Origin: an uncultured Pseudomonadales bacterium
Lineage (GTDB): Bacteria; Patescibacteriota; Microgenomatia; UBA1400; PJMF01
Direction of reading: 5' to 3'
Assembly (NCBI GenBank): GCA_964433225.1
Contig: CAYSQA010000003.1
Span: forward strand, 1 to 56,445
DNA: 56,445 bases
Under the pieces are notes generated by a model, which was not told where the DNA came from, searched no databases, and saw only the letters and a list, made by a program, of their open reading frames with translations. Position 1 is the stretch's first letter. The number at the start of each line of letters is the position of its first letter. The position numbers and the translations under genes were made by a program. Of this stretch, positions 28,124 through 38,818 are shown piece after piece.

Positions 28124-29236
28124 TTTTGATTTATTAAATTCTTGGTCAAAGAACTTTAAATCTCTTTGAATCACCGTGTTCCAGACAGGTAGCATATTGT
28201 GATCTGCGCCAGGATAGGTGTAGTAATCTAATTCAATAGTTGGTTGGTTGCTCTCTTCTCTTTTAGTATTGATGGCGGCTATTTTTTGGACAAACTCATC
28301 AGACCAAGTTTTAAGGGCAGCCTCATCGGCGGTCCCATGATGAAGTTGAATTGGCCCAATTAGTGATTCTAAATATTGTGTCAGACTAAACTCTCTTGGG
28401 TCATAGTTTTTTTCAAATTCACTCAGCCACATTCTAGTAGCCCGACCCTCATCTGCCATTTCATCGGTATAGAACAAGACAGAATAAGGGAACGGCACAG
28501 TAACTGGCGCCCACAAGGTAGTTGGAATGGCTTGTTCTAGGATTTCTAGACTGGTTAAAGCAATTTGACCACCATTGCTGTGGGCCCAAATGCCTAGTTT
28601 TTCTGGGTCTAAACTAGCTTTTTGAGTAGTTTCAACTGAATAAAACTCCAAGAAGGCCTGAGTTCTAAGAGTGGAGATTAGCTCAACAATTTGAATCGGC
28701 TTGATAAATCTTGCCTCCCAGCTGTCTGTTGGTTCTGGATCACTTTCTCCATAACCAAGAAAGTCAGGGGCAATAGTGATGTAGCCTGTCTCAGCAAAAA
28801 CCTTAGCAGCATTCTGAGTACCAGTCCCTGTTTGATAGGTTTCCAAAGGAACATAACCTCTAATCAATAAGATAACTGGAGTAGGTACCGTTGGATTTTG
28901 AATAGCTTCTTTAGGAATATTAAGTTGTCCAGTAATTTTTTGTTGGTTGCTCAAATATGAAAATAAGTAGGTATTATGAGTAGGATTTTCAGTAATGATT
29001 TTTTCTAAAGTAATTTGACTAGGAGCATAGCGACGAGTTTTCAGGTTTGGAATAGTGTATTGCAGTAGGGTTAGCTCTTTTTTTACTAGGTTTTTATCGA
29101 CAAAGGGAGAAAGCAATGGTGTTTCTTGGGTAATGGGAAAAAAATTGCCCAACATAAAACCACTAAAAGTAGTGAGTAGGACTAATAATGTCAAGAAAAT
29201 TTTTTGTTGATGGAGTTGCCAAAAACTAGCTTGCAC
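28118..29236 (-). CDS. Secreted or membrane-anchored alpha/beta hydrolase (S9/dienelactone hydrolase-like)
   Basis: N-terminal hydrophobic anchor, nucleophile elbow WAHSNGG and C-terminal GADH. GTG start. Confidence 0.7.
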   Translation of the reverse strand: MQASFWQLHQQKIFLTLLVLLTTFSGFMLGNFFPITQETPLLSPFVDKNLVKKELTLLQYTIPNLKTRRYAPSQITLEKIITENPTHNTYLFSYLSNQQKITGQLNIPKEAIQNPTVPTPVILLIRGYVPLETYQTGTGTQNAAKVFAETGYITIAPDFLGYGESDPEPTDSWEARFIKPIQIVELISTLRTQAFLEFYSVETTQKASLDPEKLGIWAHSNGGQIALTSLEILEQAIPTTLWAPVTVPFPYSVLFYTDEMADEGRATRMWLSEFEKNYDPREFSLTQYLESLIGPIQLHHGTADEAALKTWSDEFVQKIAAINTKREESNQPTIELDYYTYPGADHNMLPVWNTVIQRDLKFFDQEFNKSKL

Positions 29237-29260
29237 AAAAATAGTATAGCTGAATACTAG

Positions 29261-29437
29261 CTAATTTAAATCGTCTATCATCTCTTCGGCAAATTCCTGA
29301 TCTTCAGGGTCTTCTGAGCTAGAGATAGTAAGATATGTTTGCCAAATAGCTGAGATAGCATCTGACTGTTCATGATTTTCAGTGGTGTGCTCTGTGCTTC
29401 CACAGTGTTTACATGATATTTGGGAGAGTGTTTCCAT
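29261..29437 (-). CDS. Possible 58-aa mini-protein with CX2CX4HX4H knuckle and acidic tail
   Basis: My own translation: METLSQISCKHCGSTEHTTENHEQSDAISAIWQTYLTISSSEDPEDQEFAEEMIDDLN. No Shine-Dalgarno upstream. Below the ORF-track length cutoff. Confidence 0.3.
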   Translation of the reverse strand: METLSQISCKHCGSTEHTTENHEQSDAISAIWQTYLTISSSEDPEDQEFAEEMIDDLN

Positions 29438-29479
29438 AGTTTTTTTAATTGTTAATTTACTAGATAAATATATATTTTG

Positions 29480-29800
29480 TGGCAGAAGCTTGAAGGTGTC
29501 TCCCCGCCAGTTAAACTGGCGAGGAGATTTGTGGAGTTAGACCTGCCGAGATTGGCTAGGTCGGACCGGTTGTGTTGGCCGGCTGACTTTTTTGGGTTTT
29601 TTGCTTTTCTTGCGAGGAACGAGTTTTTTGAACAGGTCCCGAACAATTGTTAAGCGAATAGCCATAAAAGTGTCTCCTTCCTTTAGGGACCTTCAGTCCG
29701 CTTGTCATCGCAGTGACGACTGAGACCGAAGGGAGGTCTTTTGGAAAAGCCCTCTGGTTTTAGCTTGTTTTAAGCCAGTACCAGAGAGCTCTTTTTTTAG
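29480..29800. other. G+C-rich, hairpin-dense noncoding element (unclassified structured RNA or long 5' leader)
   Basis: Hand-folded hairpins at 29499-29527, 29540-29562, 29566-29582, 29693-29723, 29724-29738 and 29752-29786, with a T7 run at 29792-29798. The composition contrasts sharply with the AT-rich flanks. Confidence 0.5.
29537..29665 (-). CDS. Possible 42-aa highly basic mini-ORF embedded in the structured element
   Basis: My own translation: MAIRLTIVRDLFKKLVPRKKSKKPKKVSRPTQPVRPSQSRQV. It is preceded by GGAAGGAG (29674-29681) 8 nt from the ATG. The G+C-rich codons (CGG, CCG, CGA) coincide with hairpins, so coding is doubtful. Confidence 0.25.
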   Translation of the reverse strand: MAIRLTIVRDLFKKLVPRKKSKKPKKVSRPTQPVRPSQSRQV

Positions 29801-29867
29801 TTATTTTTTCAAAGAGCGGTAGTTATAACTGCAAACAAATCTTGATTGGAAAGTTTTAACTCGAGTA

Positions 29868-29876
29868 ATTATATCA
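29868..29876 (-). promoter_or_regulatory. Extended -10 promoter element TGaTATAAT on the minus strand
   Basis: The reverse complement of attatatca is TGATATAAT. It would start a transcript near 29861 reading into the structured element. Confidence 0.4.
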
Positions 29877-29937
29877 CAGCATATCAAATACGCCTCTTTA
29901 TCAGAGAAGAGTCCTACTAAGATCTGAAAAGTCTGGT

Positions 29938-29943
29938 TATAAT
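29938..29943 (+). promoter_or_regulatory. TATAAT -10 box placed for a leaderless aspS mRNA
   Basis: The TATAAT ends 7 nt before the aspS ATG (29951). No purine-rich Shine-Dalgarno lies between them. Confidence 0.3.
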
Positions 29944-29950
29944 ACCAACT

Positions 29951-31360
29951 ATGACAGAACGAACTTATATTGCTCAAACTCCAGAGTTAGTTGGTGAAAC
30001 GGTGGTTTTACAAGGTTGGGTGGATACCAAGAGAGATCACGGCAAATTAACCTTTATTGATTTACGAGACAAGAGTGGCATTGTGCAGTGTGTTGGTTGG
30101 CAGATGATGGGTGAGCTAACTTCTGAATCGGTGCTTGCTATTACTGGTTTGGTTAAACAACGACCAGAAAAATTAGTTAACAAAGATTTAGTTACCGGTA
30201 GTATTGAAATTGAAGTTAAAGAATATGAAGTTTTAAATAAAGCCAAAGAGTTGCCAATTTCTGTTGATACTGATGGTAAAGAGATTAATGAAGAAGCTAG
30301 GCTCAAGTTCAGGTATTTAGATTTGCGTCGTAAAAGAATGCAAAAAATTATCAGAATGCGTTCTGAATTTATCAGAGCCATTCGTGATGGTTTGTATGCT
30401 GAAGAATTCGTCGAAATCGAGACCCCAATGTTGACCAAATCCACCAAAGAAGGAGCTCGCGATTTTTTGGTACCTTCGAGGTTTAATCCAGGTAGGTTTT
30501 ATGCTTTGCCCCAAAGTCCACAACAGTATAAACAATTACTAATGACGGCTGGTTTTGAACGTTATTTTCAAGTAGCTCGTTGTATTCGTGATGAAGATTT
30601 GCGAGCAGATCGTGGCTTTGAGTTTACTCAGTTAGATCTAGAAATGAGTTTTGTTAATCAGCAACAAGTAATGGATTTGGTGGAAAAAACAGTCAAACAA
30701 GCCGTTAAAAAAGTTGGTGGTCAACTGCAAAGTGAAAAGTTCCCTGTAGTAACTTATCAAGAGGCAATGGAAAAATATGGTGAGGATCGTTTTGATTTGC
30801 GAACCGAAGAAGAAAAAGAACAAGGGGTGTTGGCTTTTGCTTGGGTGATTAATTTTCCTTTTTTCAAAAAAGTTGATAAGAAAGATATCGCTGAAGTTAG
30901 AGATGGCAAGAGTGGTTGGACATTTACGCACAATCCTTTTAGTACTCCTTTGCCAGAAAATGAACAAGATCACCTGGCTAAGACAAACATTGAAAAGATC
31001 ATGACAGCTCAATATGATTTGGTTTGTAATGGTTATGAAGTAGGTGGTGGAAGTATCAGAGCTCATAAACCAGAATTGTTAAAAGCTACTTTTGAGATTA
31101 TGGGTTATACGGCAGATCAGATTGAGGCTGGTGTGGGTCATATGTTAAAAGCCTTTGAGTTGGGGACTCCTCCTCATGGCGGAATTGCTTTGGGCTTGGA
31201 TAGATTGGTGATGTTATTGGCTGGAGAAGAATCTTTGAAAGAAACAATTGCTTTTCCAATGACTTCTTCAGGTAAAACCGCGGTGATGGATGGTCCTAGT
31301 GAAGTAGATCCAGAACAGTTAAAAGAACTATCGTTAACAGTTAATCCGGATAAAAAATAA
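29951..31360 (+). CDS. aspS: Aspartate--tRNA ligase, bacterial-type core lacking the large insertion domain (469 aa)
   Basis: OB anticodon domain, FRYLDLRR, FVEIETPMLTKSTKEGARDFLVPSR, ALPQSPQQYKQLLM, class II motif 2 RCIRDEDLRADRGFEFTQLD and motif 3 GGIALGLDR. Confidence 0.93.
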   Translation: MTERTYIAQTPELVGETVVLQGWVDTKRDHGKLTFIDLRDKSGIVQCVGWQMMGELTSESVLAITGLVKQRPEKLVNKDLVTGSIEIEVKEYEVLNKAKELPISVDTDGKEINEEARLKFRYLDLRRKRMQKIIRMRSEFIRAIRDGLYAEEFVEIETPMLTKSTKEGARDFLVPSRFNPGRFYALPQSPQQYKQLLMTAGFERYFQVARCIRDEDLRADRGFEFTQLDLEMSFVNQQQVMDLVEKTVKQAVKKVGGQLQSEKFPVVTYQEAMEKYGEDRFDLRTEEEKEQGVLAFAWVINFPFFKKVDKKDIAEVRDGKSGWTFTHNPFSTPLPENEQDHLAKTNIEKIMTAQYDLVCNGYEVGGGSIRAHKPELLKATFEIMGYTADQIEAGVGHMLKAFELGTPPHGGIALGLDRLVMLLAGEESLKETIAFPMTSSGKTAVMDGPSEVDPEQLKELSLTVNPDKK

Positions 31361-36242: not shown

Positions 36243-37850
36243 ATGGCTTGGCACAGAAAACACAGACCGAAACTAATCAGTGAACTTCACTTAACCAATG
36301 TTAGGGAAGCTTTAACTAGTTTAATGCAAACAACTAGTTTTCCTCAGGTTTTTTTGTTTGCTGGTCCCAAAGGGACGGGTAAAACTTCTGCTTCAAGAAT
36401 TTTAGGAGCAATGCTTAACGATCCTAAAAATGATCAAGCTGTTGAAAGTTTATTTTTTAAAAAAGATTTACCAAAAAAAGTAACCCTCAAAGATCCTGAT
36501 GTAGATTCCAAATTTGCTCAGTTAGTTTATGCCGGTTCATCCTTTGTTGTTCAAGAGATGGATGCCGCTTCACATCGAGGAATTGATGATATTAGAGCAC
36601 TTAAGGAACGAGCGATGTTACCGCCTCAGGAGGGTAAAATTACTGTCTATATTCTTGATGAAGCTCACATGCTTACTACAGAGGCTTTTAATGCTTTGTT
36701 AAAGTTATTAGAGGAGCCCCCAGTTCATGCTTTGTTTATTTTAGCTACCACGGAGTTTCATAAAATTCCTGAAACAATTACTTCCAGAAGTTTTCACTTA
36801 GCTTTTCGTCAAGCTACCGATGATGAGTTATTGGCTGCTTTACAGTCGGTATTAGCTAAGGAAAAGATTAAGGCAGATGATGAAATTCTCAAACTTATAG
36901 TGCAACGAGCCGATGGTAGTTTTCGTGATGGAGTGAAGTTGCTGGAATCAGTCGTGGAAGATGAGCAAATAACCTTGGCTTCAGTGGAAAAAATCTTGGG
37001 GAAGAATGTTGAACCACTCCTAATTGAGTTGGTTCAGGCTGTTTTAGATAAAGATGAAACTCAAGTTAGTCAGTTAATTGCAGATTTGCGTCAACAGAAG
37101 TTTGCTGAAAAATATGTTTATCAAGTGTTGTTTTCTCTATTACATCATTCATTGCTTCAGGATTTGGGTGTTAAGCCTGGTCAGGCTTTATTTAAGCAAA
37201 AAATTGCTCGCTTTTTCTTAGATGAACTTTTGAAAGCTAACTTGGATGCTTTTTCGCCTATTAATTTTTTAAGTTTGGAAATAAAACTACTATCTTTGGT
37301 CGAACGAGCCAAACAAAAAAATGGTGCAACTCCTCCTAGCAAAAAAAAAATAAAAAACCCGATAGTTACCAAAGTTGATAATCATCAAGTTAAATCAGAA
37401 ACGTCAGAAATAATGACGACTGAAGTAGTAGTCAGTAGTCAAAAGCAAGGAAACTTTAATGAAGTTGACCAAGAAAATGCTAGTGAAGAAGAGAAGTTTT
37501 ATTTAACAGAAGAAGTTCATGATTTAGGGAAAAATTTACTAGAGCAGTGGGACCAATTTTTAAAAATTGTTCAGCATAAAAATGCTACGGTGGCAGCCTT
37601 ACTAAGATCTAGTAAACCTTCGATTGGCGATACTGGTATCCCCGAAGTGGCTGTTTTTTATAAATTTCATCAAGAACAACTACAACAACAAAAGTACATG
37701 AACATTCTTCAGGAGTGTACTAAAGATTTGGTTGGAAGTATTTTACCATTGCACGTATCATTACATGAAATTCCTCAAGAGGCCACTCTGGTTGAGGTTG
37801 ATAACCCTCCTCCCCAGTTAGCCCAATTGGCAGAAGAAGCTTTGATGTAG
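36243..37850 (+). CDS. dnaX: DNA polymerase III subunit gamma/tau
   Basis: GPKGTGKTS Walker A, ILDEAHML and SRS sensor motif (TSRSF). Confidence 0.92.
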   Translation: MAWHRKHRPKLISELHLTNVREALTSLMQTTSFPQVFLFAGPKGTGKTSASRILGAMLNDPKNDQAVESLFFKKDLPKKVTLKDPDVDSKFAQLVYAGSSFVVQEMDAASHRGIDDIRALKERAMLPPQEGKITVYILDEAHMLTTEAFNALLKLLEEPPVHALFILATTEFHKIPETITSRSFHLAFRQATDDELLAALQSVLAKEKIKADDEILKLIVQRADGSFRDGVKLLESVVEDEQITLASVEKILGKNVEPLLIELVQAVLDKDETQVSQLIADLRQQKFAEKYVYQVLFSLLHHSLLQDLGVKPGQALFKQKIARFFLDELLKANLDAFSPINFLSLEIKLLSLVERAKQKNGATPPSKKKIKNPIVTKVDNHQVKSETSEIMTTEVVVSSQKQGNFNEVDQENASEEEKFYLTEEVHDLGKNLLEQWDQFLKIVQHKNATVAALLRSSKPSIGDTGIPEVAVFYKFHQEQLQQQKYMNILQECTKDLVGSILPLHVSLHEIPQEATLVEVDNPPPQLAQLAEEALM

Positions 37851-37899
37851 TGGAGAGTTATAGTACAATCAGTTTATTATCAGGAAGGGAAATAATTTT

Positions 37900-38181
37900 A
37901 TGGCAAATCCATTTAAAGCTTTAGGAGACTTAAACAAGCTTCGTCAACAAGCCAAAAAAATGCAACAAGAACTCTCAGCTGAAGAAATTCGTGTTGAGGA
38001 GGGTGATATTGTGGTAGTAATTTCTGGTGATCAAAAAATTAAGCAATTTTCAGTTCAAGGTATCAGTAGTGATGAGGCCGTGGAAGTATTGAATAAAGCA
38101 ATCAAAAAATCTCAGGAAGTCGCTGCTAAAAAACTTCAGGCCATGACTGGCGGTCTTGGTGGCATGATGGGTGGTAACTAG
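37900..38181 (+). CDS. ybaB: YbaB/EbfC family nucleoid-associated protein
   Basis: 93 aa with a MQQEL...V.G...G.V.V..G pattern and a Gly/Met-rich tail. Canonical position after dnaX. Confidence 0.85.
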   Translation: MANPFKALGDLNKLRQQAKKMQQELSAEEIRVEEGDIVVVISGDQKIKQFSVQGISSDEAVEVLNKAIKKSQEVAAKKLQAMTGGLGGMMGGN

Positions 38182-38205
38182 AATTTATATTTGTTAATTT
38201 AAAAA

Positions 38206-38229
38206 GGCTCCTTGATGGGAGCCTTTTTT
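38206..38229 (+). terminator. Intrinsic terminator after ybaB
   Basis: GGCTCC ttgat GGGAGCC followed by T6. Confidence 0.8.
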
Positions 38230-38239
38230 CGAGGTATTT

Positions 38240-38818
38240 ATGGAACAATTTTTTTTGGCTACCGGTAACCAACACAAAATTAAAGAAGTTTTGGAGATAG
38301 CACCCCAAATAGCTTGGTTGACGGTGAATGATTTTTCAGCTCTAAAAAATTTTGAACCGGCAGAGATTGGTAAAAGTTTTAGCGAAAATGCTGAAATTAA
38401 GGCTAAAGCTTTTGCTGAAAAAACCGGTTTGATCACGGTGGCTGAAGACTCAGGTTTAGAAGTCGAGAGCTTAAATCAAGAACCTGGTATTTATTCTGCT
38501 CGTTGGGTAATCGGGACAGATACAGATCGTAATTTAGCTTTATTGAAAAAATTGGAAGGAGAAACCAATCGAGCGGCTCGTTATGTAGCTACTCTTTGTG
38601 TCTTTAATCCTAAAACTGGTCAAACAGGTTTTTTTAGAGGTGAAGTTAAAGGAGCAATTGCTCATGAGATTAGAGGCAGTCATGGTTTTGGTTATGACCC
38701 AGTTTTTATTCCGGTAGGTTATACAGCAACCTTTGGAGAACTTGACGAGACGATCAAACAACAATTTAGCCATCGCAAAGAAGCTTTTAAAAAATTCTTA
38801 GCTTGGTTAAAGCCTTAG
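38240..38818 (+). CDS. rdgB: Non-canonical purine NTP pyrophosphatase (RdgB/HAM1)
   Basis: LATGNQHKIKE, EDSGLEV, FGYDPVF and SHR. Confidence 0.9.
   Translation: MEQFFLATGNQHKIKEVLEIAPQIAWLTVNDFSALKNFEPAEIGKSFSENAEIKAKAFAEKTGLITVAEDSGLEVESLNQEPGIYSARWVIGTDTDRNLALLKKLEGETNRAARYVATLCVFNPKTGQTGFFRGEVKGAIAHEIRGSHGFGYDPVFIPVGYTATFGELDETIKQQFSHRKEAFKKFLAWLKP

Follow-up and report, generated by a model that had tools for sequence, protein, structure and literature searches.

Positions 29438–29950 of the 56,445-nucleotide (nt) contig analysed here (the window) fall within its largest stretch poor in open reading frames (ORFs). They contain ORF42 (29537–29665, minus strand; stop codon 29537–29539), a 42-codon ORF enclosed in conserved RNA structure, which we consider with high confidence to be a translated small gene. 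The gap is bounded on one side by ORF58 (29261–29437, minus), beyond which lies an alpha/beta hydrolase gene, and on the other by the gene for aspartyl-tRNA synthetase (AspRS; 29951–31360, plus). The AspRS of the window is 99% identical to a protein from a metagenome-assembled genome named ‘Patescibacteria group bacterium’ and 82–88% identical to proteins that NCBI labels Candidatus Pacebacteria. G+C content is 0.42–0.55 across ~29450–29800, compared with ~0.30 in the flanks. An earlier reading of the letters alone (the sequence-only reading) had singled out this gap and its rise in G+C, and the ORF lists and composition profile agree with it on both counts; its statement that the gap holds no convincing coding sequence was wrong, as the conserved coding ORF42 lies inside.

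We ranked AspRS homologues from a set of 5.8 billion proteins by identity and fetched their contigs for comparison. Using nhmmer and blastn, we found no DNA similarity between the element and 160 AspRS-anchored loci from GTDB genomes and JGI metagenomes, collections in which the closest AspRS is only ~74% identical. A 97% protein variant of window ORFs led to a strain (L164–L168) with 95% nucleotide identity to the window. A small-ORF unit, oriented opposite to AspRS, lies between the hydrolase and AspRS genes in five lineages with 81–95% AspRS identity, namely L164, L169/L171 (AspRS 87% identical), L172 (88%), L173 (86%) and L181 (81%). Where the contigs include enough upstream flank (L169, L172 and L173), MetRS comes first, followed by a small ORF of ~150 codons, RmuC, the hydrolase, the gap and AspRS; the L181 contig is short and covers only the start of a downstream ORF taken as the hydrolase, then the gap and AspRS. 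The locus is single-copy, syntenic and not mobile. At the same site in L175, L177, L179, L180, L182 and L183, whose AspRS proteins are 77–80% and 82% identical, the family is absent and other content is found.

The signals for expressing ORF42 are conserved. All six sequences (window, L164, L169, L172, L173 and L181) have TGATAYAAT at the corresponding position; in the window it takes the form TGATATAAT (29868–29876, minus), a putative extended −10 promoter with a predicted start site near 29861. A transcript of ~370 nt with a ~195-nt leader would result. The Shine-Dalgarno sequence (SD) GGAAGGAG (29674–29681, minus) precedes the ATG by 8 nt, and AAGGAGGU or GGAAGGAGG is located 7–9 nt 5′ of the start codon in all lineages, the start being ATG except in L169 (TTG). 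This SD is the strongest in the window, where 36 of 53 genes show none. The reading frame stays open for 35–45 codons in all lineages, while the two other frames contain stops in the five that were checked. These minus-strand features, namely the extended −10, the SD and the 42-codon ORF, had been named in the sequence-only reading, and every one of them is present and conserved in the relatives.

The encoded peptide is small and very basic. That of the window, MAIRLTIVRDLFKKLVPRKKSKKPKKVSRPTQPVRPSQSRQV, has an isoelectric point (pI) of 12.0 and 33% Lys+Arg; together with METSESTAVRDLVKKTTTKTLPQKKKKKHKRSNKPRGQVRPRPEF (L169), MKIVSDAVRKLFHKPATRKKTKQHRFRRKERRMVRARPS (L172), MKTRRRPNLVTSLFKKSPKPKKAVPRKRRSVKKRWPVRIKRF (L173) and MAKSKPRLRPVTALVTKVNKEKKTGKKPAKTRTNK (L181), it has a V-R/T-x-L-F/V-x-K block and a basic tail. 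Across lineages the pI is 11.2–12.0, Lys+Arg content 33–45% and the grand average of hydropathy (GRAVY) −0.88 to −1.69, and no peptide in any lineage has a hydrophobic stretch longer than ~7 residues or a transmembrane stretch. The codons of the block vary by lineage (Leu: CUG/UUG/CUU/UUA/UUG; Arg: CGG/AGA/CGC). Because the block is kept through these synonymous Leu and Arg changes, selection appears to act on the protein, and the ORF is therefore probably translated. Conserved start signals, an open frame and residues maintained via synonymous changes are thus all found for ORF42. The window and L164 copies differ by only two substitutions, one synonymous and one not, which makes dN/dS uninformative for that pair.

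Searches for further members of the family were negative. In the 5.8-billion-protein set, ORF42 retrieved only itself and the 97% variant; phmmer against 1.8 billion representatives gave low-complexity matches and no homologue; and the small ORFs of 180 loci, all searched with a hidden Markov model of the peptide, yielded only members of the family. Profile searches of Pfam, NCBIfam and PDB sequences returned no significant match (best E values 0.021 for OAD_gamma and 1.6 for a histone H2B tail) and placed the product in no known ribosomal-protein family. Gene callers missed the ORF42 homologue in L169 and L172 and, in L173, called an 83-codon ORF on the wrong strand (L173:3709–3960, plus), so annotation misses this gene systematically.

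The RNA around and within ORF42 is tightly folded. On the minus strand, 29478–29800 folds at −118.9 kcal/mol (z = −8.5 against shuffles), compared with z = −3.4 on the plus strand; across the five sequences computed, z is −6 to −11 on the minus strand and −3.5 to −6.5 on the plus strand. An RNAalifold consensus built on five sequences contains 63 pairs in six helices (P1, P4, P3, P3a, P5 and T), and L181 was added for a six-sequence consensus. In the five-sequence consensus, 89% of 309 cells are paired, versus 39–56% when partners were slid by 1–3 columns. Pairs changed on both sides number 21, compared with 4–9 in the slid controls, and none of 500 shuffles reached any of the observed pairing measures. 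MAFFT misaligns the divergent stems. Sequence and structure are conserved across the homologous intergenic regions whose collection the sequence-only reading had proposed, and by these RNAalifold pair counts covarying pairs are present.

The suggestion that the element fits no known RNA family could have been overturned by a database match and was not: Rfam 15 gave zero matches in the whole window at gathering thresholds, only noise across 29200–30100 at a permissive E value (E 0.28–9.6, scores far under gathering), and zero matches in the homologous loci L164, L169, L172, L173 and L181. RNase P, tmRNA, 6S, SRP and T-box identities were dropped, since Rfam gave no match and ARAGORN reported no tRNA or tmRNA.

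Strand assignment rests on G–U pairs and on these folding scores against shuffles. The first clue came from two hairpins of the sequence-only reading, whose C–A mismatches on the plus strand are G–U pairs on the minus strand. The alignment has 38 G–U cells; pairing reaches 275/309 on the minus strand and 251/309 on the plus strand, the loss falling mostly in P1 and P3. Because the G–U pairs fail on the plus strand, we assigned the structure to the strand of the ORF. An opposite orientation had been considered, in which a plus-strand RNA of ~320 nt, a small RNA (sRNA) or an AspRS leader, would run from a TTGTTA/TATATT promoter-like pair to P1 and a T7 run. A scan does find the pair, and P1 followed by T7 resembles an intrinsic terminator when read on the plus strand. 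However, the pair is not conserved, lying in a fast-evolving spacer that is missing from the relatives, and the scan yields 4 promoter-like sites, against 3.0 ± 1.8 in shuffles. The T-run is just T4 in relatives, P1 falls from 93/100 paired cells to 79/100 on the plus strand through the change of G–U to C–A, and there is no T-box or other Rfam match. AspRS also has its own conserved GGTTATAAT box immediately 5′ of its ATG, which argues against a plus-strand leader and, equally, against the minus-strand element being one for AspRS. We regard a plus-strand RNA as highly unlikely. The T-runs on the plus strand inside the element are complements of Lys codons. The gap has six repeated 8-mers, among them the octamer GTGTCTCC, to which attention had also been drawn; at least one repeat appears in 87% of shuffles, and L164 does not retain the copy at the SD. 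Neither this repeat nor the promoter and terminator signals of the plus strand are more than chance occurrences or by-products.

On the minus strand, the leader begins with P1 (29745–29793), a long hairpin with 14 base pairs (bp) and a further distal stem of 6 bp, flanked by an A-run and a U-run that are paired to one another. P1 is found in every lineage as a near-perfect duplex of 16–22 bp whose distal sequences differ; 6 of its pairs are changed on both sides, and 15 of its 93 paired cells are G–U. An alternative hairpin, P2 (GAGGGC-UUUUCCAAAA-GACCUC; 29733–29754, minus), uses the base of the P1 3′ arm as its 5′ arm, and its 3′ arm holds an upstream anti-SD. The P2 motif AGAGGGCUUUUCCAAAAGNCCUCCCUU occurs once in the window, is conserved in the window, L164 and L173 and is recognizable in L172; L169 has a shortened variant, GAGGAC-UUUU-GUCCUC, and L181 has GAGGAGGCUU-CAU-AAGCUCCCUC. 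Read from the sequences, with P2 in the form GAGGRC...GNCCUC, full P1 and P2 exclude each other in every lineage. P3 (9 bp, CCUUC.../...GAAGG) encloses P3a (7 bp) at 29691–29731 (minus) in the consensus fold; 97.6% of P3 cells are paired, 4 pairs are changed on both sides (for example, CCUUC/GAAGG versus CCUUG/CAAGG), and an equivalent stem is found in L181. P4 joins an upstream CCUCC to the SD (29732–29737 with 29676–29681, minus) in the five-sequence consensus. P5 (29535–29567, minus; 8 pairs) lies at the 3′ end of ORF42, over the stop codon, with 90% of cells paired and 2 pairs changed on both sides. Of the hairpins that the sequence-only reading had folded by hand, those at 29499–29527 (T), 29540–29562 (inner P5), 29693–29723 (P3/P3a) and 29752–29786 (P1) are all conserved; the one at 29724–29738 did not survive, being broken by an A-to-C change in L164 and replaced by other pairings in relatives.

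The last helix, T (29499–29527, minus), is a G+C-rich 3′ hairpin of 13 bp. It is present in all lineages with compensatory changes, such as CCCCGCCAGU/ACUGGCGGGG, GCCCGUCAGU/ACUGACGGGC and CCCCAUCAG/CUGAUGGGG, and 89% of its cells are paired. No U-tract follows it in any lineage; ACACCUUCAA and similar sequences do. T may act as a terminator or as a stabilizer. Its position behind the ORF raises the possibility of a leader-peptide attenuator, in which translation of the mini-ORF to its stop would decide whether T forms and hence whether transcription reads through to the hydrolase. In keeping with such a device, the small ORF and the hydrolase share a strand in every lineage, the ORF coming first; its stop codon is 10–20 nt before T (10 nt in the window) and its Lys/Arg codons come in runs. 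Yet attenuation is expected to use a U-tract and an antiterminator, and T lacks the former and has no obvious alternative of the latter kind. A conserved peptide motif would be unexpected in a codon-counting leader, and in the window ORF58 is inserted between the small ORF and the hydrolase. The hydrolase gene, moreover, has its own conserved TATACT box 6–9 nt 5′ of its start codon in all lineages, which suggests that it is transcribed separately as a leaderless mRNA. We therefore doubt that it is co-regulated with the small ORF, as the sequence-only reading had supposed in proposing control of a downstream hydrolase, and we consider attenuation improbable.

ORF58, which begins METLSQISCKHCGSTEH, encodes a protein with an acidic C terminus and a C-x2-C...H motif and is confined to the strain group of the window. 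It evolves like a real gene, with synonymous and nonsynonymous divergence (pS and pN) of 0.21 and 0.02 against L164. A protein homologue search with it recovered only itself and a 97% variant. L169, L172, L173 and L181 lack ORF58, and in them the hydrolase directly follows the small-ORF unit.

The nucleotide sequence of the unit changes more slowly than that of its surroundings. Against L164, pS is 0.03 in ORF42 (1 of ~32 synonymous sites), compared with 0.21–0.32 in five nearby genes (AspRS, the hydrolase, ORF58 and two more that lie downstream of AspRS). The ~136-nt leader from P1 to the start codon differs by 2 substitutions and one 2-nt insertion, while the spacer just beyond T shows ~25% differences. 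From the low synonymous divergence it follows that the nucleotide sequence of ORF42 is constrained well beyond coding needs. Such excess constraint would also be expected if a minus-strand RNA of ~310 nt acted itself, for instance by soaking up a protein or regulating through base pairing, while its ORF was of minor importance or not translated. Hairpins inside the ORF recur in every lineage, and the conserved C-terminal Val-Arg codons overlap a GGU that pairs with ACC in P5, which fits the same idea. Nevertheless, the strong conserved SD, the start codon, the open frame and the synonymous Leu/Arg switching in the N-terminal block favour translation, no Rfam family matches, and regulatory structure in an mRNA explains the synonymous-site constraint equally well. 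We judge a dual-function or mainly noncoding RNA to be unlikely. The free-standing ncRNA of ~330 nt, on either strand, that the sequence-only reading had entertained is not supported, as the central 129 nt are a conserved translated ORF and the plus-strand promoter is not conserved.

We propose instead that the structure serves the small gene by hiding its SD. An anti-SD-like CCUCC (29732–29736, minus) is situated directly 3′ of P2, ~55–75 nt upstream of the SD. Among SD partners within the transcript it ranks first or second in five of six sequences and fourth in the window, and it pairs with the SD in the leader-only minimum-free-energy folds of L164, L169, L172 and L173 as well as in the five-sequence consensus. 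A second anti-SD, a CUCC just after the stop codon (29533–29536, minus), is part of a conserved UAAC(C)UCC(A) motif represented by CUAACCUCCAC (L169), AUAACCUCCAA (L172), CUAACCUCUAC (L173) and CUAACUCCAC (window). This motif appears to be conserved as RNA, because in L172 it is placed 12 nt after the stop. The post-stop CUCC is the main predicted partner of the SD in the window (probability 0.55), L169 (0.86) and L172 (0.96), and the six-sequence consensus, which includes L181, shows the SD and the post-stop segment joined in a long-range helix. In each lineage the best SD complements recur at the same two or three sites, namely the upstream CCUCC and the post-stop motif or the CU-rich 5′ arm of T. 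For five sequences, the SD has a predicted probability of only 0.01–0.17 of being unpaired (0.83–0.99 of being paired). In L181, four of the five SD bases examined are unpaired with a probability of 0.00–0.04 and the fifth is unpaired. On balance, these thermodynamic predictions incline us to the view that SD hiding by the mRNA fold provides translational control of ORF42. The suggestion in the sequence-only reading of a leader-like 5′ untranslated region (UTR) of ~195 nt controlling the mini-ORF was essentially right, its promoter, hairpins, SD and ORF being conserved in five lineages with covariation.

A fold of this kind is also found in type I toxin–antitoxin modules, and a harmful peptide could be encoded here, its mRNA silenced by SD-hiding folds and neutralized by a plus-strand antisense RNA of ~110 nt, running from the 29449–29476 promoter pair to a hairpin and T-run at 29566–29595. 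Type I toxins are typically hydrophobic, whereas the ORF42 peptide, by its GRAVY and its lack of a transmembrane stretch, is not. The predicted sequestration of the SD, including by long-range 5′–3′ pairing, is a feature used to recognize type I mRNAs, and the layout, with upstream and downstream anti-SDs and a tight fold, is like that of Helicobacter aapA3/IsoA3 (PMC6733600). There are, in addition, terminator-like sites on the plus strand within ORF42, although the T-runs involved merely complement Lys codons. The proposed antisense promoter lies in non-conserved spacer of the window; L169, L172, L173 and L181 have nothing equivalent, the hydrolase start coming immediately next in these lineages. 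A single-copy, syntenic, non-mobile locus also counts against such a module. We think a toxin–antitoxin module unlikely.

If SD hiding does control ORF42, its steps might be as follows. P1 would fold first, and the upstream CCUCC would catch the SD as it emerges during transcription. In the finished RNA, the post-stop CUCC-like segment or the 5′ arm of T would take over, with ORF42 looped within the long-range helix. Were the base of P1 opened or removed, P2 could form, lock the upstream anti-SD and free the SD; this locking would require opening the base of the much stronger P1, for which a nuclease or a bound protein could suffice. The exclusivity of P1 and P2 may thus act as a switch, which we find plausible. 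Candidate triggers are binding of the basic peptide to the RNA that encodes it, temperature, and an RNase that processes the long P1 duplex. Autoregulation by the peptide would be the simplest, and we offer it as a guess; our confidence in any specific trigger or peptide function is low. The arrangement of P1, P2, anti-SD and SD is laid out like an expression platform, which recalls the riboswitch option of the sequence-only reading. P1, however, is a plain long duplex, its loops are unconserved, the sole conserved single-stranded motif spans ~27 nt, and we saw no indication of a ligand-binding aptamer and no evident link to a ligand or gene function.

Several points weigh against our interpretation. 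The consensus structure and the pair counts come from the same alignment, which inflates the counts, and only four to five independent lineages contribute. SD pairing is a thermodynamic prediction of helices of 4–6 bp, and the anti-SD used varies between predictions. Pairing of the SD with the upstream CCUCC is weaker in the window itself, where the SD reads GGAGAC and P2 contains one G–A mismatch. As T lacks a U-tract, the 3′ end is undefined. We infer the promoter, the transcript ends and translation from sequence, and the peptide is without detectable relatives or a known fold, so that its function is guessed from composition.

The region between the hydrolase and AspRS genes is variable beyond the family. 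For the relative with AspRS P0009 (82% identical; L175, L176 and 15 similar contigs), independent assemblies all break 140–225 nt upstream of AspRS, hinting at a repeat or strain-variable sequence at the site of the unit. A different small ORF (MSNPRLF...) occupies the equivalent site in L177 (~1199–1560, minus), L180 and L182, with its SD inside a hairpin of 15 of 16 bp (CCUUCUCUUCUCAGAC / GUCUGAGAAAAGGAGG); a similar CCUCCUUUUU...AAAAAGGAGG hairpin is present in L183, and SD-sequestering hairpins are thus recurrent in this region. In L002 (2462–2985, plus), the hydrolase–AspRS gap contains, on the AspRS strand, two tandem cassettes ~280 nt apart. Both comprise a long hairpin, a GCUGGNGCAAAGCGC hairpin, a strong SD and a Lys-rich mini-ORF of 22 or 15 codons, after which come a CCCCCCCCUCU run with predicted pairing to the SD and a canonical terminator. 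The design idea is like that of the window element, with no sequence similarity. A common leader with a terminator at its end, containing GGGUAAGCCC...GGAAU...AGGUGGCACC, lies 5′ of AspRS in L001 (2800–2976), L003 (2660–2900) and L004 (2800–2990; all plus). It looks T-box-like by eye, Rfam gives neither a T-box nor any other match even at E ≤ 1, and it may be unclassified or very divergent.

Elsewhere in the window, many genes have a TATAAT-like box 5–10 nt before the start codon and no SD, for example at 29939–29944 (plus) and 29243–29248 (minus), and such boxes are also upstream of the genes starting at 204, 20993, 24144, 26475 and 53865. The 36 of 53 genes mentioned above lack even a 4-mer SD core, suggesting that leaderless mRNAs are common in this genome. 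The second-largest gap (37850–38240) contains a 56-codon ORF (38011–38181, plus) with an AGGAGG SD and a Gly/Met-rich tail, which may be another unlisted small gene.

Taken together, the locus is a previously unclassified gene for a small basic protein, set in a conserved mRNA structure; the clade is narrow, the kind of mechanism is familiar and the element is not a new RNA class, which makes the finding one of moderate interest. Patescibacteria have small genomes with many unknowns, and small ORFs regularly go unnoticed; an unannotated small-protein family with a structured mRNA is now added to the gene inventory of these bacteria. For ncRNA screens, the locus is a caution that a gap that is rich in hairpins and G+C and matches no database entry can be a tightly folded mRNA. 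If SD hiding is confirmed, the unit would be a compact system for gated translation of a single strong-SD gene among many that look leaderless.

Several known systems resemble the unit in part. The mRNAs of ribosomal proteins and other RNA-binding proteins have structured leaders that are bound by their own product. By analogy, ORF42 combines a small, very basic and probably nucleic-acid-binding product with a structured leader carrying the conserved motif AGAGGGCUUUUCCAAAAGNCCUCCCUU; unlike those proteins, it matches no ribosomal-protein family and is restricted to a narrow clade. Dual-function sRNAs that encode peptides, such as SR1/SR1P, SgrS/SgrT and RNAIII/hld, likewise consist of a compact structured RNA of ~300 nt with a short translated ORF and constrained synonymous sites. 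In contrast to these, no target complementarity or trans function is known here, and cis-regulation explains the structure adequately.

The closest mRNA design is that of type I toxins, in which a short ORF lies in a highly folded mRNA with anti-SD segments on both sides, an arrangement that here would block translation during and after transcription. In the aapA3/IsoA3 toxin mRNA of Helicobacter, SD-sequestering hairpins are found both in the 5′ UTR and in the ORF (PMC6733600). We do not file the unit with the type I toxins, because its peptide is hydrophilic and highly basic, without a membrane helix, and no conserved antisense promoter was found; its single-copy, syntenic locus sets it apart as well.

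A further analogy is with rpsU, the bS21 gene of Flavobacterium johnsoniae, which stands out by its strong SD in a genome poor in SDs and is regulated via anti-SD availability (PMC9976891, PMC7797042). ORF42 similarly has the strongest SD of its window and encodes a small basic protein, and most of its neighbours lack an SD, many of them looking leaderless. Its product shows no similarity to bS21, however, and because some other window genes have good SDs as well, a ribosome blind to SDs is improbable. The mRNA of ORF42 also bears copies of a CCUCC like that of the 16S rRNA 3′ tail, a link that is speculative. One further idea, quite unlikely, is that the peptide is a clade-specific accessory factor. 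It would bind 16S rRNA at its 3′ tail, which contains CCUCC, or the ribosome close by, and would regulate itself via the two CCUCC mimics in its mRNA. If so, the unit would be a Patescibacteria analogue of the bS21/anti-SD circuit of Flavobacteria, its transcript both messenger and decoy, and its synonymous sites would for that reason evolve about ten times more slowly than those of neighbouring genes.

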